From contig JBBCAX010000021.1 of the NCBI GenBank assembly GCA_051382335.1, positions 1 to 27,902 of the forward strand: a stretch of 27,902 nt of DNA, written 5' to 3'. The stretch comes from Deltaproteobacteria bacterium TL4. GTDB lineage: Bacteria > SAR324 > NAC60-12. The translations under genes were made by a program, and so were the position numbers. The notes under the pieces are model-generated. The model did no database searches and had not been told where the DNA came from. It saw only the letters and a list, made by a program, of their open reading frames with translations. Below are positions 2,313-27,310 of this stretch, piece by piece (the first letter of the stretch is position 1; each line of letters begins with the position of its first letter).

Positions 2313-3809
2313 TTATAGTACAAAATCTTGACAGCGTTTTCGTGCCTGTTCCACGTGATTTTTAAATGCTTCAATCGATTGGAAATAACCTTCGCTTTGA
2401 GCGGTCATAGACTCAATCTGCTGTTCCACAGCGTCAGGAGAAGGAGCCCCTTGATGTTTCCTGTGTGAAAGTACGATTTGGGGCTGACTGAAGGGCTCCA
2501 GTTCTTCATCCGAAAGCGTGGCCTCAATTCCATTTTCGCGTAAGGCTTTTTTGATAGCTGAAGGGGAAAGTCGCTGTTGTTGTTCAGAAAGCTTAACCGC
2601 TAAAGCCATCACTTCGTAGCATTCCCTGAAAGATAAGTTCAGACTTCGAGCAAGATAGTCCGCAAGATCAACCGCATTCATAAATCCGGTTTGACACTGT
2701 TGCCGCATCGTTTCCTTATAAACCCGCAATGTTTCAAAAACACCTCTCAAGATCGTTGGAACAGGCTCGCATTCCCTGATGATATCCATAATCAGATATT
2801 TCGTTTGTTGGGTGTCTCTATTGTATCCACTAAGTCCTCCCTTTTGAATTCCCATCAGACTGACCACGCCCCCGTGAACTAAGGAGGCCTTGGCTTTGAT
2901 AATTTCAGCAAAATCGGGATTTTTCTTTTGAGGCATGATGGAAGAACCTGTTACGTAAGATTCATCAATACCAATCAACTTCAGGTAAGGCAGGCTCAAG
3001 AAAATTAAATCTTGAGCCATGATGCTGGCATGATTCATAAAGAAGGCATAATTCTGAGCTAATTGCGCTTCATTTTCCCACCGGGAAACAATGCAATCAA
3101 GCGTATTGAGATCCGTTTTTTCAAAACCAAGCAATTCCGTTGTGAGTTGACGGTCAATAGGCCAGGAGGTTCCAAAGGAGGCGGCCGCACCCAAGGGATT
3201 CCGGTTTACTAACTGAAGTCCTGAGAGGAGCCTTTCCAAATCCCGATTAAGTCCTTGAACATAGGCACATAACCAATGCCCCCACGTTGTGATCATCGCA
3301 GGTTGATAATGGGTAAAGCCCGGCATCACGGTTTGAACATGCGGCTTGGCGACACGGAGTAAGGTCCCTATTAACTCATAGATGTCTTTGGCCAAACGAA
3401 TTCCCGCATCCCTTAAATACAGTCGCATATCACAGGCCGTCTGATCATTTCTGCTACGTCCTGTATGCATGCGCCCTCCAATGTCAATCCCATATCGCTC
3501 CGTAATGAAGGCTTCCACATTGATATGCACATCTTCTTTCCGAGGATCCAGCGTGAATTCATTTTTTTGAACGAGTTCTTCTAAATCCGCCAACCCTTTC
3601 AGAATATTAGTCAGGGTGGTTGAGTCAATAATCTTCTGACGGTGGAGCATAATGTTGTGAGCACGGTTGGTCCAAATATCATAAGGCAGTAAGGTTTGGT
3701 CCGCCATGGGAAGCGCTTGCACATCTCTTCCTGCACAAAACAACACATTCGCTTCTTTGGGGGCGACGTTGAGGTGATTTCCCCAAACTTGTGATTTTTT
3801 TTCGGTCAT
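2313..3809 (-). CDS. argH: Argininosuccinate lyase
   Basis: EDVHINVE, GRMHTGRSRNDQ, MPGFTHYQPA, GSSIMPQKKNPD (fumarase/ASL signature) and GYNRDTQ motifs. The likely start is the ATG at 3809 (MTEKK), not the ORF-track start at 3848. Confidence 0.96.
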   Translation of the reverse strand: MTEKKSQVWGNHLNVAPKEANVLFCAGRDVQALPMADQTLLPYDIWTNRAHNIMLHRQKIIDSTTLTNILKGLADLEELVQKNEFTLDPRKEDVHINVEAFITERYGIDIGGRMHTGRSRNDQTACDMRLYLRDAGIRLAKDIYELIGTLLRVAKPHVQTVMPGFTHYQPAMITTWGHWLCAYVQGLNRDLERLLSGLQLVNRNPLGAAASFGTSWPIDRQLTTELLGFEKTDLNTLDCIVSRWENEAQLAQNYAFFMNHASIMAQDLIFLSLPYLKLIGIDESYVTGSSIMPQKKNPDFAEIIKAKASLVHGGVVSLMGIQKGGLSGYNRDTQQTKYLIMDIIRECEPVPTILRGVFETLRVYKETMRQQCQTGFMNAVDLADYLARSLNLSFRECYEVMALAVKLSEQQQRLSPSAIKKALRENGIEATLSDEELEPFSQPQIVLSHRKHQGAPSPDAVEQQIESMTAQSEGYFQSIEAFKNHVEQARKRCQDFVL

Positions 3810-3837: not shown

Positions 3838-5181
3838 CTACAAACCAAGGCTGCTTAATAACTCCTCAACCTGATTTGCTGATGAGGTTTCCTCCATTTT
3901 TGTGGGCGCTGCGGACACAGAGGATTTCAGGGTATATTCATACATTTTCACAAGTTGATCCACCAAAACCCGTTGCATAGGGTTAGTGGCCTTGTTTTGT
4001 CGAGCTGTGTAATTATGCGCGGCGAGCATCTGAACAAAAGTGCTGATTCTGCGGTTTGCTTCTGACACATTGTAAATACTGCACCGACAAACCAAATACA
4101 TCACATAAGCGAGGCTGAAATGATCCTTGGTCCATCCTCCACTTGCCAAATATTGCGCAAATGAAACAGGATCAAGCGTGCCCTCAACGAGGATTCCCGT
4201 TAAGAATTGAGCTTTGGAGAGAGGCTTTGCTAAAACCTTGGAATTAGCAATCTGTTGATGTAAGATCATCAAATGATCCCCTAAGTTCGTCATTTCCAAG
4301 TCATCCACAGAGTTAAACTTCAGCAAATTTTGATAATTAGAAAAACTTCGTACTTTTTCAGCAATTTCACGGGTGAGATCAAACACGAGCTTGTTGACAT
4401 TGGTTACTTTTTCCTCCACTTGAAAACGAGCGAGTTCGGTATAGATAAGACGTGTCCTTAGTTTACGTCCCAGTAAAAGTTTATTGATCACGTCGACAGG
4501 AATTCCATACTGCTTCAGTTTTTGCTGAAGGATTATTCGAATCTCGTTGTTGATCGGTAACCCATCCGCGCAAAGTTCATTGAAAATGGTCGAAAGCAGA
4601 AAGTCTTTTTCCCAAAGGTCCTTGTGATCATAGATTCCCTGAATCTTATGTTTCAATTTGTATTGATCTCTGACCAGGCGATCGAAGCGTTCTGTTAACA
4701 CGACGGACATTAGGGTGTACATGGTTATATTTTGCTGGTATTCTTGGTCCGCCAAACGATTTTCAGGAAATTCCATACCGTCAAGCATGTCTGAAAGCGA
4801 GGAGAGATCAATACCCAAGAGTAAAACCTCACCTGCCGCTTTGATCGAGGCCCCCCGGGCTTCACCCAGCAGGCTACGCTCTCCGAAAAGCGTAAACATT
4901 TGATTCATCACATCTATTTGTTTTTCTTCATCAATTTCATTCTGAAGGAAAACACGAAGTTCCCCCTGAATTAAAACGAAAATTTCTTGATCATACAGCC
5001 CTTGTTGGATGACTGCTTCTCCTGGTCCTTTTTTAACAAATTTAGAATATTGAAACAGTTGCTGGAGCTGGCTTAAGGAGAGCTGTGCGAATAAAGGAAC
5101 TTGCCTCATGATTTCAACAAACTCCTGTTCCACTTCAGGTGCCGTGTTTTTAAGATAATGGGTCTGAGGAATTTCTGACAT
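3838..5181 (-). CDS. Cyclic-nucleotide-binding domain protein with a helical C-terminal region and a CheZ-like C-terminal peptide
   Basis: N-terminal cNMP-binding (Crp-type) fold: VPLFAQLS...GEAVIQQG...FVLIQGELRV...FGERSLLGEARGASIKA. It ends ...SSANQVEELLSSLGL. The start is probably the ATG at 5181. Confidence 0.8.
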   Translation of the reverse strand: MSEIPQTHYLKNTAPEVEQEFVEIMRQVPLFAQLSLSQLQQLFQYSKFVKKGPGEAVIQQGLYDQEIFVLIQGELRVFLQNEIDEEKQIDVMNQMFTLFGERSLLGEARGASIKAAGEVLLLGIDLSSLSDMLDGMEFPENRLADQEYQQNITMYTLMSVVLTERFDRLVRDQYKLKHKIQGIYDHKDLWEKDFLLSTIFNELCADGLPINNEIRIILQQKLKQYGIPVDVINKLLLGRKLRTRLIYTELARFQVEEKVTNVNKLVFDLTREIAEKVRSFSNYQNLLKFNSVDDLEMTNLGDHLMILHQQIANSKVLAKPLSKAQFLTGILVEGTLDPVSFAQYLASGGWTKDHFSLAYVMYLVCRCSIYNVSEANRRISTFVQMLAAHNYTARQNKATNPMQRVLVDQLVKMYEYTLKSSVSAAPTKMEETSSANQVEELLSSLGL

Positions 5182-5281
5182 ATTCAGCACTCAAAAATTT
5201 AGGAAAAATCAACTCAATCAAATTATCGACATTCATTCAAATAATTTCATTTTTGACCCAGCGACAGCAACTCCGTGTCCC

Positions 5282-5490: not shown

Positions 5491-5506
5491 TGGCCTTTCT
5501 TTTGCA
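5491..5506 (+). promoter_or_regulatory. Sigma54 (-24/-12) promoter of the flgB operon
   Basis: TGGC-CTTTCTT-TTGCA, correct TGGC-N7-TTGCW spacing, about 64 bp upstream of the flgB ATG. flgBC operons are commonly sigma54-dependent in polar and delta-proteobacterial systems. Confidence 0.75.
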
Positions 5507-5569: not shown

Positions 5570-5986
5570 ATGTCTGATTTATTCCGAAGCAAAACGATGA
5601 CCTTGCTGGAGAAAACACTCAATTTTCGTACAAGTCGACATGACTTATTGGTTTCGAATATTGCGAATAAAGACACACCAGGTTTTCAAGCTCAGGATTT
5701 GGTTTTTGAAAAATCGTTGAAACAAGCTCTAAAGGCGGGTCAACCAGGCCCCTTACAAACCAAAGAGGCCCGTCATTTTGACGGCAATAACACGAAGCCT
5801 TTGGATCAAGTGACAGGTCAACGGATTACCAGTGCCGCCCCTTTTGTCGGGTTTGATGGAAATACGGTTGATTTAGATAAAGAAATGTCGAAATTGGCAG
5901 AAAATCAATTGATGTATAATGCGACCATTCGGATGGTCTCCCATCAATTTCGACAACTGAGAAATGCCATTAAAGGAGGAGTCTAA
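5570..5986 (+). CDS. flgB: Flagellar basal-body rod protein FlgB
   Basis: RHDLLVSNIANKDTPGFQAQDLVF and DGNTVDLDKEMSKLAENQLMY. The AGGAG RBS precedes the ATG at 5570. Confidence 0.96.
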   Translation: MSDLFRSKTMTLLEKTLNFRTSRHDLLVSNIANKDTPGFQAQDLVFEKSLKQALKAGQPGPLQTKEARHFDGNNTKPLDQVTGQRITSAAPFVGFDGNTVDLDKEMSKLAENQLMYNATIRMVSHQFRQLRNAIKGGV

Positions 5987-6455: not shown

Positions 6456-6761
6456 ATGACAAAGATAAACATTGAAAATCAAATAAACGCGTTATACCAA
6501 AAGGCCAGTGAACGGAAGAAGGAAGGGAATGAGACCCCTTCTTCAGAACCCGCTACTATTGGAAACGCATTAAAAGAGACCCTACAGAACATGCAGGAAA
6601 TTTCGAATGAGGTAGATTCCGCATTGAAAGCGTTATCAAGTTCGAACACTGAGGAGCTATCGGAAGAATTAGCACAGGTTGGTGTGATGCAAACACGGAT
6701 TATGGAAGCGCAACATAACCTTGTGGCGTTATACAAAAAATTGAAAACAAATAAAAGCTAG
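6456..6761 (+). CDS. Small helical protein, probable divergent FliE paralog
   Basis: 101 aa, lying between flgC and fliE. The helical pattern ALKETLQNMQE...LSEEL...AQHNLVALYKKL parallels the FliE C-terminus (VRNKLMAAYEEI) but lacks its invariant residues. Confidence 0.55.
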   Translation: MTKINIENQINALYQKASERKKEGNETPSSEPATIGNALKETLQNMQEISNEVDSALKALSSSNTEELSEELAQVGVMQTRIMEAQHNLVALYKKLKTNKS

Positions 6762-7284: not shown

Positions 7285-8907
7285 ATGGCTGAACAAGCCA
7301 ATCCGATACAAGACATACGATTTCAGTTTCAGAATTTTTTTGGTCAGTTGAGTCTGGCAAAACGCATCACGATTCTGATGGTATTGGGCGTCATTCTGGC
7401 AGGGATGGCGACCATGATCGTTATTTCCAATCGACAAACCTGGGCGCCTTTGTACAGTAACCTGGAGCCTGGCGATGCGGCTAAAATCGTCGAAAAACTG
7501 AAAGAAAACCAGATCCCGCACCAATTGGCACCGGGAGGCCGAACTATTTTGGTTCCTCCACAGATGGTGGATGATACCCGGTTGATCATGGCCAGTGAGA
7601 AAGTCCTGCCTGGAAGTGGTGTGGGGTTCATGGAGATGTTTGGTACGCCAAGTCTGGGAGAAACAGAGTTTCAGCAACAAGTGAAATATCGTGTGGCTCA
7701 AGAAGGTGAATTGGCACGTCTCATTGGAAGAATCAACAGCATCAAGTCGGCGAAGGTCTCCTTGGCCTTACCCACCAAAACATTATTCAGTGATTCTGAA
7801 CAACCCCCGACGGCCGCCGTTTCCATCGAAATTGCCAGCAATGCAACGGCTTCACGGCGTCAAATCGAGACGATTACCCATTTGATCGCTGCCGCCGTAG
7901 AAGGTATGGAACCCCGTAATGTACGCGTCAGTGATCAAAGCGGAAGGCTTTTGAGTCGTGATTTGGAGGACGAATCTGTAGGCGGGCGTTTAAGCGAGCA
8001 CTATGCCTACAAACGACGTTTTGAAACAGAGTTGGAGAAAAATGTATTAGGTCAATTAGAACCCATCGTTGGCGAAGATCGTGTAAAGGTTAATGTTTCC
8101 GCAATGATCAAGTTCGATCGGGAAACGAGCAAAGAACAATTGATTGATCCTGACCAAACAGCAACCTTGAGTGAGCAAACCTCGAATGAAAATTCTACCG
8201 GTTCTCGTTCCATACCCGTAGGACCTGCGGGAGTAACCACCAATTTACCCGAAGCGACAGGCCGAGAAGCGGCAACGGTTTCCGAATTTGATAAACAGAG
8301 TACAACCCGAAATTTTGAAATGAGTCGCAAAGAAAGAACCATTGAATCGGCGACAGGACAAGTCCTGGGATTGAGTGTCTCTGTCTTGCTGGATAATAAG
8401 CACCCCGCATTATTAGATGCCGATGGAAAAATCGTAGGACGTGAAAGCTTACCTTGGACTGAAGCGGAAAAAGAAGAAATTGCTGCAATGGTCCGGGCGG
8501 CAATCGGTTTTACCAATAATGACCAGCGCAAAGATACGGTGTTTGTCGCCAATATGTCCTTTGGTAAACCTGTTGAAGAAGATCAACAAGCTCAACTTGA
8601 AGAAACTCAGCGTCAGCGTTTATTTATTGCGGATGTGGTAAAATTCGTGGTTCTCGGCATTGTCATCATTATGCTGATCCTGTTAATTATCCGCCCAATG
8701 GTTCAGCGTCTCAGCGCAAAGCCCGCGGATTTGGATTTGTTGATGGGCTTGCCGGCGACTATTGGAGAACTCGAAGGCGAAGAACTCGAAATTCCAACCG
8801 AACGCGAAGCTGGAATTCCTCCAAGAGACAAGATTATCGATATCGCACGTCAAGATCCTCTCAAAACAGCTTCAATGATTCGAGCTTGGTTACGAGAGAA
8901 GAAATAA
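7285..8907 (+). CDS. fliF: Flagellar M-ring protein FliF
   Basis: N-terminal TM, LYSNLEPGDAAKIVEKLK, GETEFQQQVKYRVAQEGELARLI, AAVEGM, second TM, and C-terminal DPLKTASMIRAWL (FliG-binding end). Confidence 0.96.
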   Translation: MAEQANPIQDIRFQFQNFFGQLSLAKRITILMVLGVILAGMATMIVISNRQTWAPLYSNLEPGDAAKIVEKLKENQIPHQLAPGGRTILVPPQMVDDTRLIMASEKVLPGSGVGFMEMFGTPSLGETEFQQQVKYRVAQEGELARLIGRINSIKSAKVSLALPTKTLFSDSEQPPTAAVSIEIASNATASRRQIETITHLIAAAVEGMEPRNVRVSDQSGRLLSRDLEDESVGGRLSEHYAYKRRFETELEKNVLGQLEPIVGEDRVKVNVSAMIKFDRETSKEQLIDPDQTATLSEQTSNENSTGSRSIPVGPAGVTTNLPEATGREAATVSEFDKQSTTRNFEMSRKERTIESATGQVLGLSVSVLLDNKHPALLDADGKIVGRESLPWTEAEKEEIAAMVRAAIGFTNNDQRKDTVFVANMSFGKPVEEDQQAQLEETQRQRLFIADVVKFVVLGIVIIMLILLIIRPMVQRLSAKPADLDLLMGLPATIGELEGEELEIPTEREAGIPPRDKIIDIARQDPLKTASMIRAWLREKK

Positions 8908-8940
8908 TCTTCTGCGAACGCGTTATAGCGAAAGTTTCCT

Positions 8941-10008
8941 ATGTATAAGAAGGTCGACAAATCCCAGATACAAGAGTATGTTCTTCCTAAGTTCACAGAA
9001 CGCCAGGAAGAACTTGGGAAGGAGGCGACCGATTCCCAAAAACGCTCAAACACTCCAACGAAAACCCCACCCAAAACAGTGCCTTCTTCAGGATTTAAAT
9101 TTGAAGATTTTGAAGATGAGACGAAAGGCCGTACGGTCTCCCTTCAAGTGATCGCCCTCTCTGATGAAGATAAAGTACAGAAATCAGCAGCCTTTAATTC
9201 CAGTAAATTTGTGCTAGAGAACTCTTTACTATCGAATGCTGAAAACTATGCTCAAACCATCAAGGAAGGTGCCGCGATTTACGCAAAGCAAATGAGGGAG
9301 GATGCGGACAGGAAATTTGCGGAAGCCAAAGCCATACACAAGGAAGCCGAAGCACTCAGAGTGTCCATGCGCCAGGAACGGGATCAAATGATTAAAGAGG
9401 CGGAAAGGCAAGTGCAGACTATTAAAGATAACGCTTTTCAGGATGGATTCGAAACGGGTCATGCCGAAGGTATTAATCGACGTTATGAAGAAATGGGACC
9501 TTTGGTGGCACAGATTGAATTGGTTTTGGAGCAACTGAGAAACCTTCGAAAAGTGGTGCGTTTTCAGTCAGAGCAGGAATTAGTCCAACTCGCGGTGATT
9601 ATTGCCAAAAAGATTGTTGTTAAAGAACTGACCCTCAATCCTGATGTCCAAAAAAATATTTTAATCTCCGCGATGAAAGAACTGGATATTCCAGGAAAAA
9701 TTAAAATTTTCTTACATCCCGATGATTATGATTTTCTCAAGCCCACTCATCTGGATTTGGATCAGTACCTGAATGATGAACAAAGCTTGGTGATTAAACC
9801 CAGTCTGGAAGTGGTCCCAGGCGCTATTTTGATTGAAACCAATGAAAGTGTGATTAACCAGTCCTTTGAACATCAATTTGAAGTCATGGAAGAAGTTTTG
9901 AGTCAGAAACTTTCAGAACGTAATGCTCGTTTGCACAAAGTGGATATGGATGAATTTGATTACTCTCTCCCGATTGAGGAAAATGATGATGGAAACGAAT
10001 TCGCCTAA
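8941..10008 (+). CDS. fliH: Flagellar assembly protein FliH
   Basis: Coiled coil with AxxxGxxxG repeats (AFQDGFETGHAEG), ELVQLAVIIAKKIV, IFLHPDD and PGAILIET; directly upstream of fliI. Confidence 0.9.
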   Translation: MYKKVDKSQIQEYVLPKFTERQEELGKEATDSQKRSNTPTKTPPKTVPSSGFKFEDFEDETKGRTVSLQVIALSDEDKVQKSAAFNSSKFVLENSLLSNAENYAQTIKEGAAIYAKQMREDADRKFAEAKAIHKEAEALRVSMRQERDQMIKEAERQVQTIKDNAFQDGFETGHAEGINRRYEEMGPLVAQIELVLEQLRNLRKVVRFQSEQELVQLAVIIAKKIVVKELTLNPDVQKNILISAMKELDIPGKIKIFLHPDDYDFLKPTHLDLDQYLNDEQSLVIKPSLEVVPGAILIETNESVINQSFEHQFEVMEEVLSQKLSERNARLHKVDMDEFDYSLPIEENDDGNEFA

Positions 10009-11323
10009 ATACTCCCATCTGGGGGATTATCTTACAGAAATGGATCGTTTTTCTCCTATTCGCTTAGAGGGACGGGTGACGCAAATGATTGGGCACATGG
10101 TGGAAGCGTATAACCCCGGCTGTGCGGTGGGAAGTCTATGTAAAATTTTTAACCCCAAGCATCGAAACTTTGTTCCGGCTGAAGTGGTAGGGTTTCGTGG
10201 AGAACGCATCCTGCTGATGGCTTTGGATCGTCTTAGCGATGTGAGTCCTGATTGTCGTGTTATTCCTGAAAACCGGACTCCGATGATTCCTGTTGGAGAC
10301 GGAATGCTGGGACGGGTTTTTGATCCCATGCTTCGCCCCTTAGATAATGGGGGTGATCTGGCGACAACTGCTGAAACGCCTCTTTATCCCGGCGTGATTA
10401 ACCCTTTAGGCCGAGCCATTATCACTCGCCCCCTTGATGTCGGTGTTCGGGCTATAAACGCGTGTTTGACCTGCGGCAGAGGACAGCGTGTTGCGATCTT
10501 GGCAGGTTCCGGCGTAGGTAAGTCTGTTTTGCTCGGCATGATGGCCCGCTATACGGATGCGGATGTCAACGTCATTGCGCTTATCGGTGAACGGGGACGT
10601 GAAGTTCGTGATTTTATTGAAAAAAACCTTGGAGAAGAGGGACTCAGGCGTTCAGTAGTAATCGTCGCCACCTCCGATCAACCCCCTTTGCTCAGGATGC
10701 GAGGTGCCTTTGTGGCGACGGCAATTGCGGAATACTTTAGAAATCAGGGTTTGGACGTCCTGCTTACAATGGACTCACTCACTCGATTTGCAATGTCCCA
10801 GCGTGAAATTGGCTTGGCTGCGGGGGAACCGCCTGCGACCAAAGGTTATCCCCCCTCGGTTTTTTCATTGCTACCACTTTTGTTGGAACGAGCCGGAACG
10901 GCTTCAGACCAGGGATCCATTACAGGCTTTTATACCGTTTTGGTTGAAGGGGATGATATGAACGATCCCATAGGGGACGCTGTACGTGCCATTGTCGATG
11001 GACATATTGTGCTTTCACGTGATCTCGCGGCAAGAGGACATTATCCCGCTATTGATATTTTAACCTCTGCCAGCAGGGTCATGAGTGATGTCGTTTCTGA
11101 ATCACACCTTCGATATAGTCATTTATTACGACAAACCTTGTCCACGTACCGTGAAGCGGAAGATCTCATCAATATCGGCGCGTATGTTCGAGGAAGCAAT
11201 CCTGACATTGATTATGCCTTGCGTAAGCACAAGGCCCTGTTGGAATTTCTGCGTCAAAACATGACAGAAAGTACTCCCTTCATGGAGTGTGAAGCCAGAC
11301 TTCAACAAATTTTTCAAGATTGA
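9983..11323 (+). CDS. fliI: Flagellar export ATPase FliI
   Basis: Walker A GSGVGKS, ALIGERGREV, Walker B DSLTRFAM and DGHIVLSR...YPAID. The start is within the ATG run at 9983-9991. Confidence 0.96.
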   Translation: MMMETNSPKYSHLGDYLTEMDRFSPIRLEGRVTQMIGHMVEAYNPGCAVGSLCKIFNPKHRNFVPAEVVGFRGERILLMALDRLSDVSPDCRVIPENRTPMIPVGDGMLGRVFDPMLRPLDNGGDLATTAETPLYPGVINPLGRAIITRPLDVGVRAINACLTCGRGQRVAILAGSGVGKSVLLGMMARYTDADVNVIALIGERGREVRDFIEKNLGEEGLRRSVVIVATSDQPPLLRMRGAFVATAIAEYFRNQGLDVLLTMDSLTRFAMSQREIGLAAGEPPATKGYPPSVFSLLPLLLERAGTASDQGSITGFYTVLVEGDDMNDPIGDAVRAIVDGHIVLSRDLAARGHYPAIDILTSASRVMSDVVSESHLRYSHLLRQTLSTYREAEDLINIGAYVRGSNPDIDYALRKHKALLEFLRQNMTESTPFMECEARLQQIFQD

Positions 11324-11906: not shown

Positions 11907-12494
11907 TTAATCCACTTGATTCGCTGCGGCTTTAAACGCATCCCAACCCACCATCAAGGGGCCCATGACTTTGTTCAAATAGGAAGCGTATCCTGATCCC
12001 AAAACCGCGCCCGCGATCACCGTGACACCTCCGGAAACCAGATCATTGAAGATACTCTTTCCTCCCGCGACCATTGCCAAATCAGTATCATTAAGCTCAC
12101 CTGTCGTGTTCGGATTTGCGGGGAGTATCAAATGAATCAACTTTTCAGAGTTCTCAAAAACTTTGATTTCAAGACGAGGCACAATGCTTCCCAACTCCTT
12201 TAACGCGTCTTTGGGAGAACGCAAGAGTCTTGATTTGTAGCCTTCATCTTCGTAGGCGTGTTTCATGACCTTTCCGGCAATTGTGCCAGTATTGATGGAA
12301 CTGGGGTTAACCTGACTTTTATCAAGCAAAACAAAATGCATCGTATCCAACGTATCTTCATGAACTGCCAGTGAAATTTCCTCTCCTAATTCAACTCCCA
12401 ATTCCGCAAGAATCGATCTGGGGTTGCTAACGAGTTTTTGTTTAAAATCCGGATCACTCCAAGTGCGTTGCACGATTTCTTCATATTTTTCCAT
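11907..12494 (-). CDS. NHLP (nitrile hydratase-like leader) RiPP precursor with a tandem-duplicated leader domain
   Basis: Two NHLP units (IVQRTWSDPDFKQKLVSNPRSILAELG...VHEDT...HFVL and VMKHAYEDEGYKSRLLRSPKDALKELG...VFENS...HLILP). These are followed by the double-glycine motif GELNDTDLAMVAGG and a 50-aa core. Strong AGAGGAG RBS. Confidence 0.88.
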   Translation of the reverse strand: MEKYEEIVQRTWSDPDFKQKLVSNPRSILAELGVELGEEISLAVHEDTLDTMHFVLLDKSQVNPSSINTGTIAGKVMKHAYEDEGYKSRLLRSPKDALKELGSIVPRLEIKVFENSEKLIHLILPANPNTTGELNDTDLAMVAGGKSIFNDLVSGGVTVIAGAVLGSGYASYLNKVMGPLMVGWDAFKAAANQVD

Positions 12495-21055: not shown

Positions 21056-24000
21056 TTAGGGTGAAATGAAATAAGATCTTAAGATTTCTTCATAATCAGA
21101 AGTTTGTAATCGTTCGTGATCTTCTCGATTGACATAGAAATAATCACTAACCTGGTACCCTGTTGTGGTAATCAGCGACTGTTGTATCGGCACTCCCGCC
21201 CGGTCGAAGGCTTCTGTCATTTTGTAATAAACAAGAGGCGCGTCCTCCATGGTAATTTTGACTCTCATGTACTCTTTTTCCACCCGGTCAAACTCTCCCT
21301 TGGATTGTATAATCACATAGCCTTTGTGGTCACAGTCCAGGAATTCCAAGCGCAATTTAGGATTGTAAATAAACTGATCCTTCGTGGGTTTGAGTTTAGG
21401 CGGAGTATCTTGATAAATATGATTTTCCAAATCCCTTGGAAAGACCACTTTGGAAGAGGACCGACTGGAAACTTGAAAATAGTAACAATAAGCGACGTTT
21501 CCATTCTCAAACAATATTTTATTCATTTTTCCGGAGCCAATATCGATATTTTTCACACTCAACGCATAAGCCACACGACTGTGAACACTGGGCATCTCAT
21601 GGATATGAATTAAAATTCCAGTCACTTTTCCCTTGGAGTCCGTCAGAACAGACACAATGGATTTGGTCTCATATTCTATAAAATTCAGCAACTGTTTTAC
21701 CAGAGTACTGGGAGAGTGACTCAAGAGAAAGCGGTTGGGGAAGGTCGTAAAAAACCAATTAATTGTCGGATTGAAGGAGGACGTCAGTTCAAGAATGGTG
21801 GCATCGCTCAGATATTGTCGAAGCGTCCTGATTAATTTATCAGTGTATTCATCAACTTTTTGAGCATCTAAAGACCCCATTTTTAAGTGTTTCCACAACT
21901 TATGGACTTCAGATTCAATTTGTTGGAGTTTTTTGTATTCTTTGGTATTGATCTGCGATAAGGGGTCGAATAGTGTGATTTGCAGATCATTTTGAAGGCT
22001 ATGGTTGATGAGCAGATCAATACGCGTATCAACTTCCAGGTCTTTTTTCTTGTTTCTGAGAAACAAGTTAATAAAATCAATAGGATCTTGATTTTTTCCG
22101 TGTCGTATTTCAGAAAAGACACGGTACATCTCTTCAAAAAATTGACGTAATTGTTTGGTATCATAATTAGCGCTGTCACTGACAGCACGATAATCGGTAA
22201 TATTGACCAGAAATAATAAAACCACCTGGGTCAAGTCCCGATCCGCAATTTCAAAAAACGTTTGTAACGCCTGATCGAAATAAGCGGAAGTTCGGCTGAG
22301 ATGCACCACCGTCATATGATGAACAATGAGCAATGACACCAGGCTAAAGAGTTCCTCATCCACGAAGCCCAAACGTTCCAAAGCTCTGACTGCTATTGAG
22401 GTTCCTGAAATCTGGTGTTGGGTTAACGGTTCCGTTTTGCCTATATCATGAAACAAAATCGCGAATTTTAAAGCAAGGAGATGCTTGGGTTGCAAGAACT
22501 GATATAACTCGAGATAGTTCTTTTTTAAATAATTCAGTTCCTCATAACAATTTTCCATGGCCTTGATAGTATGAAGACAAACAGGAAACTGATGGTACGT
22601 TAAATTTCTGAGAAGAAAACGGATTTGATTGATTTCAGGAATAAACCGTCCCAAAAGGGTATCAGGCAGCTCATTGTAAGCATTAGGCACACAGATTTTT
22701 AACATGACCATCAAGGCTTTGGAAGTATGGGGCGTGAGCATCAATTGGGTAAATTTATCGGCAATATCCTCACGATGCCTTGAGATCAATTCAGCAGTAA
22801 GGGGAGGAATCACATTCGTCAGTTCATCCTTTAATTCAAAGGAAAGATCATAATCGGAGTTTCCAAGATAGATGAACAAGTCCAGAATAGTGGCCGGATC
22901 CTTGAAAATTAAGGGCAGAGGCACCTGAGGTAAACCTTCTACCGCATGAATTTCAATCACTCTTTTTTTTCTCAAATGAACCACTACCTGGAAATTTGAA
23001 AAGGTACGGACGATGGTTCTTTGCAACAAGCGCTTCAGGATCATCTGAGACAGTTCTTGAATGTGGTTCACCATGAGATTCCTGAACCGATCAAAATCAT
23101 CTATGTTTTCAAACCGCTTCTTTTTTAAAATATAGAGTCGTTCCACGTTGTCATTGATCACATTCAGCGGAACATCTGTATCAATACATCCGACATCCCT
23201 AACTTCCTCATCGTAATAGTACGCTACGGCACAACCACTAAAATTTCTCAGATCGTAGATGAGCTCCAACGCTTGGCAGAGTTTGAAGGCTTGACGAGAG
23301 GAAAGAATCCCTTTTTCAATCAGTAAGGCCAGTAATTCTACCGTTTGACTCGGAAACACACCAAAAGTAGCCGCAGCAATCCACAGTGGAAGTTGTATGG
23401 AACGCAAGCCTCCAAAATCATGTTTTAAATCCATATGATTCAGGCCAGGGTGTCGACAGGCACTATATTCTTCCAGTTTATTCAGAACATAAGGTTCATA
23501 GGGTAAAATTTGATAAAAGCGTTGCTTTAATAATTCCATCAAAGAATCGCTCCCGACCAACACGCGACTTTCAAGAACAGAGGGAATGGTATGAAGCATC
23601 TCCTCTTGCGTAAAACGGGACAAGTCTTCGTCAATTTCAAAATACTGATGTGATGTTTCGATATTGGCATTGGTAAGCAGGTGCTCCATACGAATAATCA
23701 ATTGTTGCAAAAGATCTATTTCGCCTTCACTCAAGCCCAACGTATTCAAGCAATATCCCAGATCCCGGTCTGACGCAAAACTCAATTCGCCCCGTCCGTA
23801 GCCACCCCGCGCAAAAACCACAAAATGATCTAAAATGAAGAGGCGGTCAATGGGGCACTTCTCAACCAGGGGTAACTGTTCAGTTAAGGTTTGGATGATC
23901 TTCTTATGAGACTCTATTTCCTGCTTTAAATCATCGACTATCTTTTGGTAGTAATGATACATATACTGCGCTTCTTTATCCCCTTGAGCCGGAGGGACTT

Positions 24001-24448
24001 CCAGTTGCTTTTTGATGATCTCAAGTTTTTCTATTTTTTCAGGCAGAATTTGTTCTTTATACTGTTTTTCTTTTCTTTTTTCAGAGACTTGGATTTTTTT
24101 AAGATGAGACAGATCTTCTAAAGCATAATCGAAAGCGAGATGAATGAGACTATCCAGTAATCGAGTATTTTTGGCCAGAATACTGAAGGAATTCTTTGCC
24201 TCCAGGTTTTGTTTCGCAATTTCAGCGGTTTGTGCTTCAAAATAGGTACTGACCACATTTGAAAAAATACTTACCCGTTTTTCGAGGTAAGGGAAGATGG
24301 TACTCGGGTCCAGTTGAGAACTCCGGCATTTTACATTTAAGCGTTGTTTGAGTTCAGAGACATGTTTAACTCGATCATCCTTGTGGTGAGAGAGATAAAA
24401 TGGATTCAAAAACGGATAAGTCGCAATTGGGGTATGAAGCGTTTCCAC
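21056..24448 (-). CDS. glnD: Divergent GlnD-like bifunctional nucleotidyltransferase/HD hydrolase (1130 aa)
   Basis: NT motif ARGGYGRGELSFASDRDL, DLKHDFGGLRSIQ, HD domain (YHQFPVCLHT...ILFHDIGK...HQISG...IVHH) and C-terminal ACT-like segments (ITTTGYQVSDYFYV). GTG start with an AGGAG RBS. Confidence 0.75.
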   Translation of the reverse strand: METLHTPIATYPFLNPFYLSHHKDDRVKHVSELKQRLNVKCRSSQLDPSTIFPYLEKRVSIFSNVVSTYFEAQTAEIAKQNLEAKNSFSILAKNTRLLDSLIHLAFDYALEDLSHLKKIQVSEKRKEKQYKEQILPEKIEKLEIIKKQLEVPPAQGDKEAQYMYHYYQKIVDDLKQEIESHKKIIQTLTEQLPLVEKCPIDRLFILDHFVVFARGGYGRGELSFASDRDLGYCLNTLGLSEGEIDLLQQLIIRMEHLLTNANIETSHQYFEIDEDLSRFTQEEMLHTIPSVLESRVLVGSDSLMELLKQRFYQILPYEPYVLNKLEEYSACRHPGLNHMDLKHDFGGLRSIQLPLWIAAATFGVFPSQTVELLALLIEKGILSSRQAFKLCQALELIYDLRNFSGCAVAYYYDEEVRDVGCIDTDVPLNVINDNVERLYILKKKRFENIDDFDRFRNLMVNHIQELSQMILKRLLQRTIVRTFSNFQVVVHLRKKRVIEIHAVEGLPQVPLPLIFKDPATILDLFIYLGNSDYDLSFELKDELTNVIPPLTAELISRHREDIADKFTQLMLTPHTSKALMVMLKICVPNAYNELPDTLLGRFIPEINQIRFLLRNLTYHQFPVCLHTIKAMENCYEELNYLKKNYLELYQFLQPKHLLALKFAILFHDIGKTEPLTQHQISGTSIAVRALERLGFVDEELFSLVSLLIVHHMTVVHLSRTSAYFDQALQTFFEIADRDLTQVVLLFLVNITDYRAVSDSANYDTKQLRQFFEEMYRVFSEIRHGKNQDPIDFINLFLRNKKKDLEVDTRIDLLINHSLQNDLQITLFDPLSQINTKEYKKLQQIESEVHKLWKHLKMGSLDAQKVDEYTDKLIRTLRQYLSDATILELTSSFNPTINWFFTTFPNRFLLSHSPSTLVKQLLNFIEYETKSIVSVLTDSKGKVTGILIHIHEMPSVHSRVAYALSVKNIDIGSGKMNKILFENGNVAYCYYFQVSSRSSSKVVFPRDLENHIYQDTPPKLKPTKDQFIYNPKLRLEFLDCDHKGYVIIQSKGEFDRVEKEYMRVKITMEDAPLVYYKMTEAFDRAGVPIQQSLITTTGYQVSDYFYVNREDHERLQTSDYEEILRSYFISP

Positions 24449-24700: not shown

Positions 24701-26341
24701 ATGGATCCTATGGGTGATGATGATTTAGATTTTGATTTTGATGACTTGGATTTGGATAGTGACGATTCTGATGAGGCGGCTGGCAGCTCTGACGATACGG
24801 ATGTGGGCGAGCTGGAGGCCCCGGATTCCGACTTCGATTTTGATTTTGATGACAGTGGGGATTCGGCTTCAGCCTCACTATCCGGTGACAGCGATCAAGA
24901 AGAGGAACTGGATTTGGATGAGTTGGACCTTGACGAATCCTCAGACCTCATGGCGTCAGTAAAAGAACGTTCTGATACAACCATGGACATGGATTTTGAT
25001 GATTTCGATCTGGAAAGTGATGGAGACGCCATCTCAGACTTGACGCAAGACGCAGAAGATGATTTATCTTCAGAAGATGGTGACGATTTTTCCTTGGATT
25101 TGATGGACAGTGAGGAGGACAGTGAGGACCTCGGAACAGAAGAATTAGATCTTGATGATTTGGACTTGGAACAAGAGCGTGAAGAGTCTACAGAGGATTT
25201 GGATGCAAACGGAATGTTGGAGCAAGCTTCCTTGAATGAGGGTGACGAGGAAGAGGACACGGATTTGGAAGATTCTGATGATTTTGCGTTTGATGAGGAA
25301 GACGCTGATTCTGAAATAGGTCCGGGAGCCGAATCAGAAGATGCGGAAAGCTTCGATGATTTTGATTTGGATGAAGAGCTGGCGCCTGAAAGGGCTCCCC
25401 GGAAATCCCCCAGAACCGGTATCATGGATGAGGAATCGGCTCAATTTGATGTCGCTGGTGAAGCGGATGAGTTATCACAGGGCCTTGGAATAGAGACAGA
25501 AGTTGTTGGTGGAGGAACATCACCTGAAGACTCAGAACCCCTGATAGAGGACGAATCTTTGGAGTTGGGATCCTCCGACGAGTTGATGGATGGTATAGCT
25601 GAGAATGAAATGGGAACATTGGAATTATCTGACGAAAGTGCTGAAAATATTCCTTCTGAAGGCCTCTTGCTCGAAGATGAGCTGAGTTTTTCTGACGAAA
25701 CAGTACAGGAGTCGGATTTGGTATTAGACGAAAGCGGTTCCTTTGAGGAATCAGATGATGATTTGATGATGGACGAAGATTCTGAGGATATGGGTGACGG
25801 TGCGTTTGATCTAATGAAGGATGATTTAATGATGGACGAAGATTCTGAGGATGACAGTTCCGTGGAAGAGGCGTTAATGATGGACGAAGATTCTGAGGCT
25901 CTGGATGACAGTGCGTTTGGTTCGGAGGCAGAGGCGTTAATAATGGACGAAGACATGGAACTGGAAGCTGTTAGCTATCAAGCGCCCGTGGTGAAACCTC
26001 AAACCGCTGCTAAAAAAGCGACATCGCACCTTGTAACTGAATCCCCCTCAATCCCTCCTGCGGCCATTCCGGTTCCTTCTGCTGAAAAAGCGCGGACACC
26101 TGAAGTTGGAACGCAACTGTTGCTGAATGTGAATCACGAAATTGTAGTAGAAATCGGAAAAACGCAGCTAACTGGAGAGGAAATCACACAGATCACCTAT
26201 GGAAGTATCCTCGAGTTAAACAAAATCGCGGGAGAGCCTGTGGATCTGGTTTTGGATGGAAAAGTGGTTGCTCAAGGAGAAGTCGTCCTGATTAACAAAG
26301 AAAAGCTTGGTGTTCGGATTATTGGGATCACTCAAAGGTAA
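24701..26341 (+). CDS. fliN: FliN/SPOA-domain protein with a very long Asp/Glu-rich low-complexity N-terminus
   Basis: C-terminal LLNVNHEIVVEIGKTQL...GSILELNKIAGEPVDLVLDGKVVAQGEVVLI...GVRI is a FliN SPOA domain. The first ~430 aa are dominated by D/E/S/L/F. Confidence 0.8.
   Translation: MDPMGDDDLDFDFDDLDLDSDDSDEAAGSSDDTDVGELEAPDSDFDFDFDDSGDSASASLSGDSDQEEELDLDELDLDESSDLMASVKERSDTTMDMDFDDFDLESDGDAISDLTQDAEDDLSSEDGDDFSLDLMDSEEDSEDLGTEELDLDDLDLEQEREESTEDLDANGMLEQASLNEGDEEEDTDLEDSDDFAFDEEDADSEIGPGAESEDAESFDDFDLDEELAPERAPRKSPRTGIMDEESAQFDVAGEADELSQGLGIETEVVGGGTSPEDSEPLIEDESLELGSSDELMDGIAENEMGTLELSDESAENIPSEGLLLEDELSFSDETVQESDLVLDESGSFEESDDDLMMDEDSEDMGDGAFDLMKDDLMMDEDSEDDSSVEEALMMDEDSEALDDSAFGSEAEALIMDEDMELEAVSYQAPVVKPQTAAKKATSHLVTESPSIPPAAIPVPSAEKARTPEVGTQLLLNVNHEIVVEIGKTQLTGEEITQITYGSILELNKIAGEPVDLVLDGKVVAQGEVVLINKEKLGVRIIGITQR
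25754..25954 (+). repeat. Intragenic imperfect direct repeats encoding LMMDEDSE
   Basis: ATGGACGAAGATTCTGAGG occurs three times (~25769, ~25832, ~25880), with a degenerate fourth copy at ~25943 (LIMDEDME). Confidence 0.85.
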
Positions 26342-26347
26342 GGAAAC

Positions 26348-27310
26348 ATGGTACGGAAAACTTATGCGGATGTCCAACCTTATGACATCATTTCATCTCA
26401 TATCGAAAGTGGACGTTTTCAGTGGCTGGATGTGGTCATGCATCGGTGGGCTTATTTGTTGGAAACCACCTTTTTTGACACCTTGGGTGTGATTTTTGAG
26501 GTGCAACCCCAAAAAGTAGAATGGAAAGCCTTTGAGACTTTCCTGAAAGAGTTTAAAGAACAACAACCCATTTACATTTTTGAGACAGAAGCTCATGGGA
26601 AAGGCTTGTTGGTTGTTGAAAATAAATTTGCTCATTCTTGTTTGTACCAAAACCCCAAAAAGCTCCTTGAGGATCAACCCTCGCATTTACCGGCGTTGGA
26701 TTCCAAAAAGCAGGCTAAATTACATTGGGTATTGAAACAGGTTTTAAGTGATTTTGAGAAAAGCTGGCTGGGAATCGCCGAGATGCATTTGTTTTTAAAA
26801 CGGGTGACCACCCATCCTTTTCGGGCCAGGGTGATGCGTCCTTTTGAAAAATGTGTGATTGCGAAATTACTTTTCCGTACTCATGGCTTTGAGTCCAATT
26901 TAACTTTGTGTTTCCCCTACATTGCTCTTGATCCAATTTTCCATCGCTTGGAACGTAAGAAAATCCTGCCTCCGGATACTCTTGAACATAACTATCCCGA
27001 AGTGACCGCTTATTTTAAAAAACTGTTAGAGCAGACAGAATACCAGTTAACCGCTGAACTTGGAACCATAGAGATTGGTCCACAACATAACCAAACCACC
27101 TTGCAAAAAGGACAAATCTTTCCCATCCACTCCCTCGTTGGAAAAGAAGTTACCCTTCGGATCAATAACACGGCTTTGTTGACAGGTGAAGTGGGAGAAT
27201 CGGAAGATAATTACGCGATTCGGGTGTTAGGAAGTTACGAAGAGAAAAAACTGGCCTACCGTAAGCGAGCCCGCACTTTCAAATCAGCGCACTGGCCCTC
27301 TGCTTCCTGA
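26348..27310 (+). CDS. fliM: Divergent flagellar motor switch protein FliM lacking the N-terminal CheY-binding peptide
   Basis: VQPYDI...GRFQWLDVVMHRWAYLL, DFEKSW, LTLCFPYIALDPI and a C-terminal SPOA (LTAELG...LQKGQI...GEVGESEDNYAIRV). No LSQxEIDxLL motif. Confidence 0.8.
   Translation: MVRKTYADVQPYDIISSHIESGRFQWLDVVMHRWAYLLETTFFDTLGVIFEVQPQKVEWKAFETFLKEFKEQQPIYIFETEAHGKGLLVVENKFAHSCLYQNPKKLLEDQPSHLPALDSKKQAKLHWVLKQVLSDFEKSWLGIAEMHLFLKRVTTHPFRARVMRPFEKCVIAKLLFRTHGFESNLTLCFPYIALDPIFHRLERKKILPPDTLEHNYPEVTAYFKKLLEQTEYQLTAELGTIEIGPQHNQTTLQKGQIFPIHSLVGKEVTLRINNTALLTGEVGESEDNYAIRVLGSYEEKKLAYRKRARTFKSAHWPSAS

Follow-up and report, generated by a model that had tools for sequence, protein, structure and literature searches.

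Gene context and domain architecture

Can a cyclic nucleotide act directly on the CheY signal of a swimming bacterium? This question is raised by a gene on the reverse strand, at positions 3838..5181, of a 27,902-nucleotide stretch of a SAR324 genome (hereafter the window). Its product, P0001, was originally predicted to be a cyclic-nucleotide-controlled binder, sink or phosphatase for CheY or another receiver domain. The reading frame is intact and encodes 447 amino acids; it starts with the ATG at 5181, in agreement with the starts of its homologues, and its C-terminal end SSVSAAPTKMEETSSANQVEELLSSLGL is followed by a stop codon, the last residues being EETSSANQVEELLSSLGL. A single Pfam family is matched above cut-off (cNMP_binding, PF00027, residues 53-134, E 4.3e-10). 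The AlphaFold2 model, built on an alignment of 18 sequences, has a mean pLDDT of 82.6 and comprises, in this order, a cyclic-nucleotide-binding (CNB) beta-barrel, two long helices (residues 145-185 and 354-389) flanking a helical insert, a helix at 401-423, a disordered linker, and a terminal helix (435-444, pLDDT about 45). The layout that had been proposed from the sequence, i.e. a CNB domain, a helical region lacking a helix-turn-helix (HTH), a linker, and a CheZ-type tail, was thereby confirmed. Downstream on the same strand, at a distance of 28 bp, lies argH (2313..3809; Pfam Lyase_1 and ASL_C2, with a start codon), and the two genes are likely co-transcribed. On the other side, a gap of about 390 bp separates the gene from the divergent flgB (5570..5986, forward strand), the first gene of a flgB-flgC-orf-fliE-fliF-fliH-fliI cluster, so that the head-to-head arrangement is as described.

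Several other features of the window were recorded. A 101-aa helical ORF without an above-cut-off Pfam match lies between flgC and fliE (6456-6761, +), and the same place is occupied likewise in G041, G044, and G045. Within 7285-11323 (+), no fliG interrupts the direct series fliF, fliH, fliI, an order repeated in locus L003. The 195-aa product encoded at 11907-12494 (-) is nitrile-hydratase-leader-like (Pfam NHase_alpha, weak Frankia_peptide), carries a double-glycine-type site, and is a possible RiPP precursor. The 1,130-aa product of 21056-24448 (-) is GlnD-like, matches GlnD_UR_UTase and HD weakly, and has an unusually long N-terminal part, and the 546-aa product of 24701-26341 (+) consists of about 430 acidic low-complexity residues with repeated D-F/L-D-L, followed by a FliN C-terminal domain.

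The cyclic-nucleotide-binding domain

The CNB domain spans residues about 22-130 (4792..5118, reverse strand), and its beta-barrel fold is supported by Pfam as well as by structural matches of the model. The best of these is PKG I (Foldseek E 2e-8); Thermus CAP (4ev0) aligns with Z 14.5 and an rmsd of 3.2 over 133 residues, and the CNB-EAL protein Bd1971 of Bdellovibrio (6hq3) with Z 13.4 and an rmsd of 5.2 over 106. The phosphate-binding cassette G100-E101...R109 (4855..4884, reverse strand) was located by family conservation and by alignment to Plasmodium PKG FGERALLYDEPRSA. Among 90 family members, G100 is found in 90/90, E101 in 89/90, and R109 in 81/90, the pocket arginine being missing in the other nine. 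Judged by sequence and predicted fold, P0001 is a cyclic-nucleotide receptor. It shares the barrel and the G-E...R cassette with CRP/FNR, PKA/PKG, and Bd1971, but differs from all of these in that it has no HTH, kinase, EAL or channel output, in a cassette that is one residue shorter than that of PKG and PKA, and in the second long helix that appears to occupy the place of the cap (see below). A Ser or Thr at the position of Gly110 in CNB pockets favours cGMP; as P0001 has neither there, we lean slightly towards cAMP as ligand. The genome of the window encodes 28 class III cyclase domains and has 44 CheW-domain matches. In one clade (L024-L028; G073-G076 and G079) the pocket arginine is lost (GEQCILGExNN) and the tail is kept; the members of this clade may no longer bind cyclic nucleotides.

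Genomic neighbourhood and promoters

A CNB protein whose gene faces flgB could regulate transcription of the divergent flagellar operon in the manner of Crp/Fnr, and NCBI indeed names two of its relatives "Crp/Fnr family transcriptional regulator". We consider this highly improbable. No HTH in P0001 was matched by Pfam, and the NCBIfam CRP/FtrB matches are limited to the CNB part, with 14-20 bits against cut-offs of over 200. Moreover, only at 3 of 26 family loci (G000, i.e. the genome of the window, G040, and G045) does the gene face flgB, each time with argH downstream. In G043, argH stands directly opposite flgB without a family gene between, its two family genes being located elsewhere, and in four other genomes that were checked the argH/flgB site holds other genes. 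Other family loci have dapB, fliI, kinase-like or metabolic genes as neighbours; the family gene of G041 and that of G044 are each found about 7 kb from a 410-aa CheZ. At 23 metagenome loci, many of them on short contigs, no flgB was seen. The functional weight that had been placed on synteny with flgB is not borne out by these arrangements, and flgB was discarded as a clue to function.

A sigma-54-like -24/-12 site (TGGC-N7-TTGCA, in line with the sigma-54 consensus) at 5491..5506 on the forward strand is kept in the three syntenic genomes and points at flgB, not at the P0001 gene. A sigma-28-like site with two mismatches is located at about 5223-5249 (-), 68 nt upstream of the P0001 gene. 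Scanning the upstream regions of 24 family loci (two of the 26 were not anchorable) led us to reject a common flagellar promoter: the sigma-54 pattern was found in 0/24, and the sigma-28-like pattern (two mismatches) in 3/24 versus a background of 4.3%.

The CheZ-type tail

Behind the core, a variable low-complexity linker (residues 424-435; 3877..3912, reverse strand; pLDDT under 50) leads to a C-terminal amphipathic helix, ANQVEELLSSLGL (residues 435-447; 3841..3876, reverse strand). The chain of E. coli CheZ (PDB 1KMI chain Z) ends in SQDQVDDLLDSLGF, and 8 of the 14 final residues of P0001 are identical to it. The likeness was quantified with a position-specific scoring matrix (PSSM), for which 40 of 73 CheZ matches from other SAR324 genomes were sampled, giving 37 ORFs with the catalytic motif and 32 unique tails. 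On this scale the tail of P0001 scores 11.3, compared to a mean of -25.2 (sd 7.4) for the 4,780 non-shadow ORFs of the genome, and ranks ninth; ranks 1-8 are CheZ, CheZ-like proteins or a P0001 paralogue, and rank 10 scores 6.5. The original claim of a close match to the E. coli element is therefore well founded. It passed over one detail, namely that P0001 ends in Gly-Leu. In SAR324 CheZ, a C-terminal Gly-Phe is found in 37/37 sequences (one with an extra Asn), and E. coli CheZ has the same ending. The terminal Phe is important in the CheZ tail.

Conservation was assessed in 30 close homologues by averaging their identity to P0001. The last ten residues (0.52) are conserved nearly as well as the CNB domain (0.54), in contrast to 0.28 for the insert and 0.13 for the linker (taken as 424-436), and 82 of the 90 family members keep a terminal helix motif; the C-terminal conservation on which the original prediction depended is thus present. 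In a profile-profile comparison (hhalign) of family residues 135-447 with SAR324 CheZ, only the last 18 columns aligned (probability 75.6, E 2.4e-5), and once the tails were removed no alignment was obtained (probability 0.3). Conservation of the tail does not extend to the linker before it, and no other part of the protein is alignable with CheZ in this manner. On sequence grounds, its match to the CheZ element is real: position, linker, and residue pattern agree. For CheZ, PMC7750401 places the linker at 169-199 and the C-helix, which binds CheY-P, at 199-214; the CheY face involved is common to CheZ and FliM (PMC3774744).

The N-terminal CheY-binding peptide of FliM and FliN proteins is a short helix of a related kind, directed at this face of CheY (PMC3774744). 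FliM is matched four times in the genome; the canonical copy (C150) carries the peptide (LSQQEVDALL). The divergent FliM-like gene at 26348-27310 (+) of the window is without it. A FliN-like protein elsewhere in the genome (L016:5833-6717 (-), equivalent to G000:C285:23829-24716) has an N-terminal arm with five MxQxxIDALL copies of the FliM CheY-binding type, e.g. MTQEEIDALL. Tails of the second subfamily described below, e.g. SQADIDALFD, resemble this FliM/FliN-type peptide, whereas the tail of P0001 differs from it in being C-terminal and in sitting on a soluble CNB protein, not on a C-ring protein.

Absence of a phosphatase motif

The original prediction had noted that no convincing CheZ catalytic motif was present, and this is correct: DxxxQ is absent from P0001, including the CheZ-equivalent zone. 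PF04344 gave no match to P0001 at E<=0.1, and neither CheX nor CheC was matched in Pfam. Across the family, the best D/ExxxQ/N column pair is found in 27/90 members, P0001 not among them, and the best D/ExxN/Q pair (the ExxN of CheC/CheX/FliY type) in 22/90. CheZ and CheX/CheC need both an acid and an amide, and RapH an amide alone (PMC3035606). P0001 resembles CheZ in ending with a flexible linker and an amphipathic helix, with the 18-column profile match. Still, it is not a CheZ, because it has neither DxxxQ nor ExxN, shows no core homology, and belongs to tails ending in Leu or Met in place of Phe; in addition, a CNB domain stands where CheZ has its N-helix. Of the three activities first suggested, a phosphatase in the CheZ or CheX sense is unsupported since no acid-plus-amide motif is conserved, and a sink is unsupported since P0001 has no receiver domain.

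The helical core and Asn376

Residues 145-423 (3913..4749, reverse strand) form a helical core, in which the long helices 145-185 and 354-389 are arranged around the helical insert. This conserved stretch of 280 residues has no explained structure. Foldseek with the core alone, the search of the middle region that had been proposed at the outset, gave no match at E<=0.001. Structural alignment found generic, unrelated bundles, the best being PorLM 7sat (Z 8.7, rmsd 7.5, 124 aligned residues). The model of the single chain has a long two-helix element; in CheZ, a dimer of hairpins makes up a four-helix bundle. CheZ 1KMI is not among the matches listed for the core structure, an absence that does not exclude likeness. 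A core profile searched against PDB sequences returned only weak matches (ferritin, E 0.009), and look-alikes from an Atlas search with the homologue P0004 share the CNB domain only.

Beyond the CNB domain, only two positions are invariant or nearly so, namely Arg165 on the first long helix (4687..4689, reverse strand; 90/90 members) and Asn376 on the second (4054..4056, reverse strand; 89/90). In structural alignments, Asn376 lies where the C-terminal helices of CRP and PKA are found. When the full model is aligned with known structures, the C-terminal helix of the CNB protein maps to residues 366-405 in 30 of 50 matches; residues 9..137 of CAP (3kcc_B) map onto 37..387 of P0001 (Z 11.1, rmsd 4.0, 127 aligned). 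In alignment ranges, as distinct from coordinates, Asn376 would thus fall near Thr127/Ser128 of CAP if the stretch is ungapped. Thr127 and Ser128 of CAP are nucleotide contacts. Judged from the same ranges, the second long helix appears to take the position of the capping helix, 250 residues after the first.

These data bear on a reading in which P0001 is a cNMP-regulated CheY-P phosphatase of new fold, the tail recruiting CheY-P and Asn376 serving as lone catalytic amide. The residue is nearly invariant and located on a long helix, an amide side chain is all that RapH needs to dephosphorylate Spo0F (PMC3035606), and the role of the tail in CheZ is to feed the catalytic helix. Nevertheless, we regard this as distinctly unlikely. 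No acid-amide pair of either spacing occurs in more than 27/90 members, and the genome already has three above-cut-off CheZs and seven CheX matches. By the alignment ranges, Asn376 falls close to the CNB pocket, and it would be more simply explained as a pocket residue because the C-terminal helices of CNB proteins and the CAP alignment fall on the very stretch that contains it.

Other tail carriers in the genome

Nine proteins of the genome carry a CheZ-type tail, P0001 included. The eight others (L007-L014) are encoded on C271, C112, C198, C121, C227, C97, C299, and C260. Those on C271 (adjoining cheY), C112, and C198 match CheZ above the Pfam cut-off; the C198 protein is a CheZ fused to a HATPase-like region (701 aa), and similar long forms occur in G043 and G045. 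C121 and C227 encode weak CheZ-like carriers, C97 and C299 carriers fused to a receiver (REC) domain, the former with DxxxQ kept and next to a CNB-containing kinase, the latter without DxxxQ. The C260 protein is a P0001 paralogue with tail. One of the eight is a 406-aa CheZ type that is widespread in the phylum. CheY proteins of the genome are encoded on C38 (10786-11160), C271 (29735-30130), C417 (5637-6026), and C395 (1068-1571).

The other Leu/Met endings in the genome are found on weak CheZ-like or REC-fused proteins and not on the three above-cut-off CheZs, so the partner of the tail may not be CheY. It could instead dock on a receiver other than flagellar CheY, belonging to a hybrid kinase or to a regulator fused to REC; the cyclic nucleotide would then feed a non-motility phosphorelay. 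The C97 and C299 proteins are examples in kind, the genome holds 170 ORFs with receiver-like matches, and, as read from the sequences, the family gene adjoins a histidine-kinase-like ORF in G085-G087 and a response regulator in G081. Still, no receiver gene is conserved as a neighbour across the family, and the family tracks CheZ (29 of 31 carriers) and is always accompanied by conserved CheY (31/31). Weighing both sides, we hold docking on another receiver to be rather unlikely.

Family composition and distribution

The family was collected by word-index searches, a HMMER scan of 1.84 billion representatives, and genome searches, resulting in 90 distinct near-full-length members, with seven fragments left out. 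All named relatives are MAG proteins labelled SAR324, "Deltaproteobacteria", "Proteobacteria" or "bacterium", annotated as cNMP-binding, Crp/Fnr or hypothetical; this is apparently an undescribed protein family of SAR324 bacteria. A quick maximum-likelihood tree, from which the tails were removed before building, separates subfamily I (41 rows, including P0001) from subfamily II (49 rows). Their cores share about 20% identity, and the tail is present in both. The motif kept in 82 members divides into 34 LLxxLG(L/M/F), 42 xxLF(D/E/G/K), and 6 other forms, and 8/90 have no recognisable tail. Within subfamily I, 34 members end in LLxxLG(L/M/F) (final Leu 22, Met 10, Phe 2), two have a QDDIxALF form, and five are tailless, three of these being one clade. 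Within subfamily II, 42 end in xxLF(D/E/G/K), four have another helix form, and three none by the pattern used; the xxLFD tails score poorly on the CheZ-tail PSSM. A shorter form of 363-386 aa, lacking part of the insert, ends in SQxDIDALF. We considered whether the style of the tail follows that of the local CheZ and rejected this, as family members of f2 end in xxLFD and their CheZ in LGF.

Among 88 SAR324 genomes, the family is present in 31, CheZ in 39, conserved CheY in 63, and FliM in 85. Family and CheZ are found together in 29 genomes, the family only in 2, CheZ only in 10, and neither in 47; since kin are not independent, no P value is given for these counts. For the 35 high-quality genomes, the corresponding figures are 16, 0, 3, and 16. 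The trend recurs in three families (f1, f2, and f7), but the co-occurrence is among kin and in part reflects loss in streamlined lineages. The two carriers without CheZ are G073 (68% complete) and G067. In the latter (G067:C17, L035; 1.5 Mb, 89% complete), CheY, FliM, and the family are present with no CheW or CheZ match, and the tail of its member is followed by an extension.

The same distribution could be explained differently. The family occurs in only 2 of 25 genomes that have CheY but no CheZ, i.e. it tracks CheZ rather than CheY, a pattern that is also compatible with CheZ itself as the binding partner. The tail might be an amphipathic helix, derived from CheZ or convergent with it, that serves another purpose, such as self-association, docking on CheZ or another hub, or a turnover signal, the cyclic-nucleotide output residing in the core. 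The loss of the tail in some members, its different form in the two subfamilies, and a core that is conserved yet unexplained are in line with this. Conversely, the motif is found in the genome only on CheZ, CheZ-like proteins, and two family members, unlike a general tag, and the CheZ element is matched in position, linker, and residue pattern. Overall, we judge such a different job for the tail to be unlikely.

Proposed function

Our preferred reading, to which we assign a little under an even chance, is that P0001 acts as a cNMP-gated, non-catalytic binder of CheY-type receivers. It is backed by the CNB pocket residues, by the conservation of the tail behind a linker that varies, by the missing phosphatase motif, and by the co-occurrence with CheZ and CheY. 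In a first step, a cyclic nucleotide would bind to the CNB pocket. The long helices would then relay binding to the distal part or alter the oligomer state, with helix 354-389 and its Asn376 in place of the nucleotide-capping helix, and the tail would thereby be exposed, buried or clustered. Subsequently, the tail would sit on the alpha4-beta5-alpha5 face of CheY, common to FliM and CheZ. A tail without a catalytic partner would therefore hold CheY-P and compete with both, so that cAMP or cGMP may alter the amount of free CheY-P able to reach the flagellar motor or CheZ, without dephosphorylation. The main doubt lies in the final residue, Leu or Met in 32/34 subfamily I tails versus Phe in 37/37 CheZ.

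A more elaborate version appears possible, albeit with appreciably less than an even chance. Here, the returning helix of the CNB receptor would close the pocket and gate the tail, the nucleotide would sequester or release CheY-P or activate a new-fold phosphatase, and the CheZ tail would be a portable receiver-docking tag within a SAR324 toolkit.

Relation to known systems

PlzC of V. cholerae offers a counterpart, as it too is a nucleotide receptor that adjusts the CheY-P/motor step from outside the receptor-kinase array; it acts via CheX (PMC12799141). PlzC uses c-di-GMP and stands, with the Cle proteins considered next, for PilZ or CheY-like folds, in contrast to the cNMP domain and the CheY-type docking helix of its own that P0001 has. 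Second-messenger control of the CheY/motor step is known for c-di-GMP, and bacterial cAMP is mainly known to act via transcription. The Cle proteins of Caulobacter are reportedly c-di-GMP effectors at the same step, likewise outside the array. A literature search with largely open-access coverage listed no account of a protein that joins a CNB domain to a CheZ tail, and no paper on SAR324 and CheZ, in keeping with the initial impression that the architecture had not been described.

In summary, the architecture is real, conserved, and apparently undescribed, and combines two known modules with a core that has no clear fold match. Through this family, cAMP or cGMP would likely be able to act on the CheY signal directly. 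If a CNB protein of this kind indeed binds CheY-P, it would provide a fast, post-translational route from cAMP or cGMP to swimming, in bacteria that have many class III cyclases, and the CheZ tail would be able to serve as a free-standing docking module.
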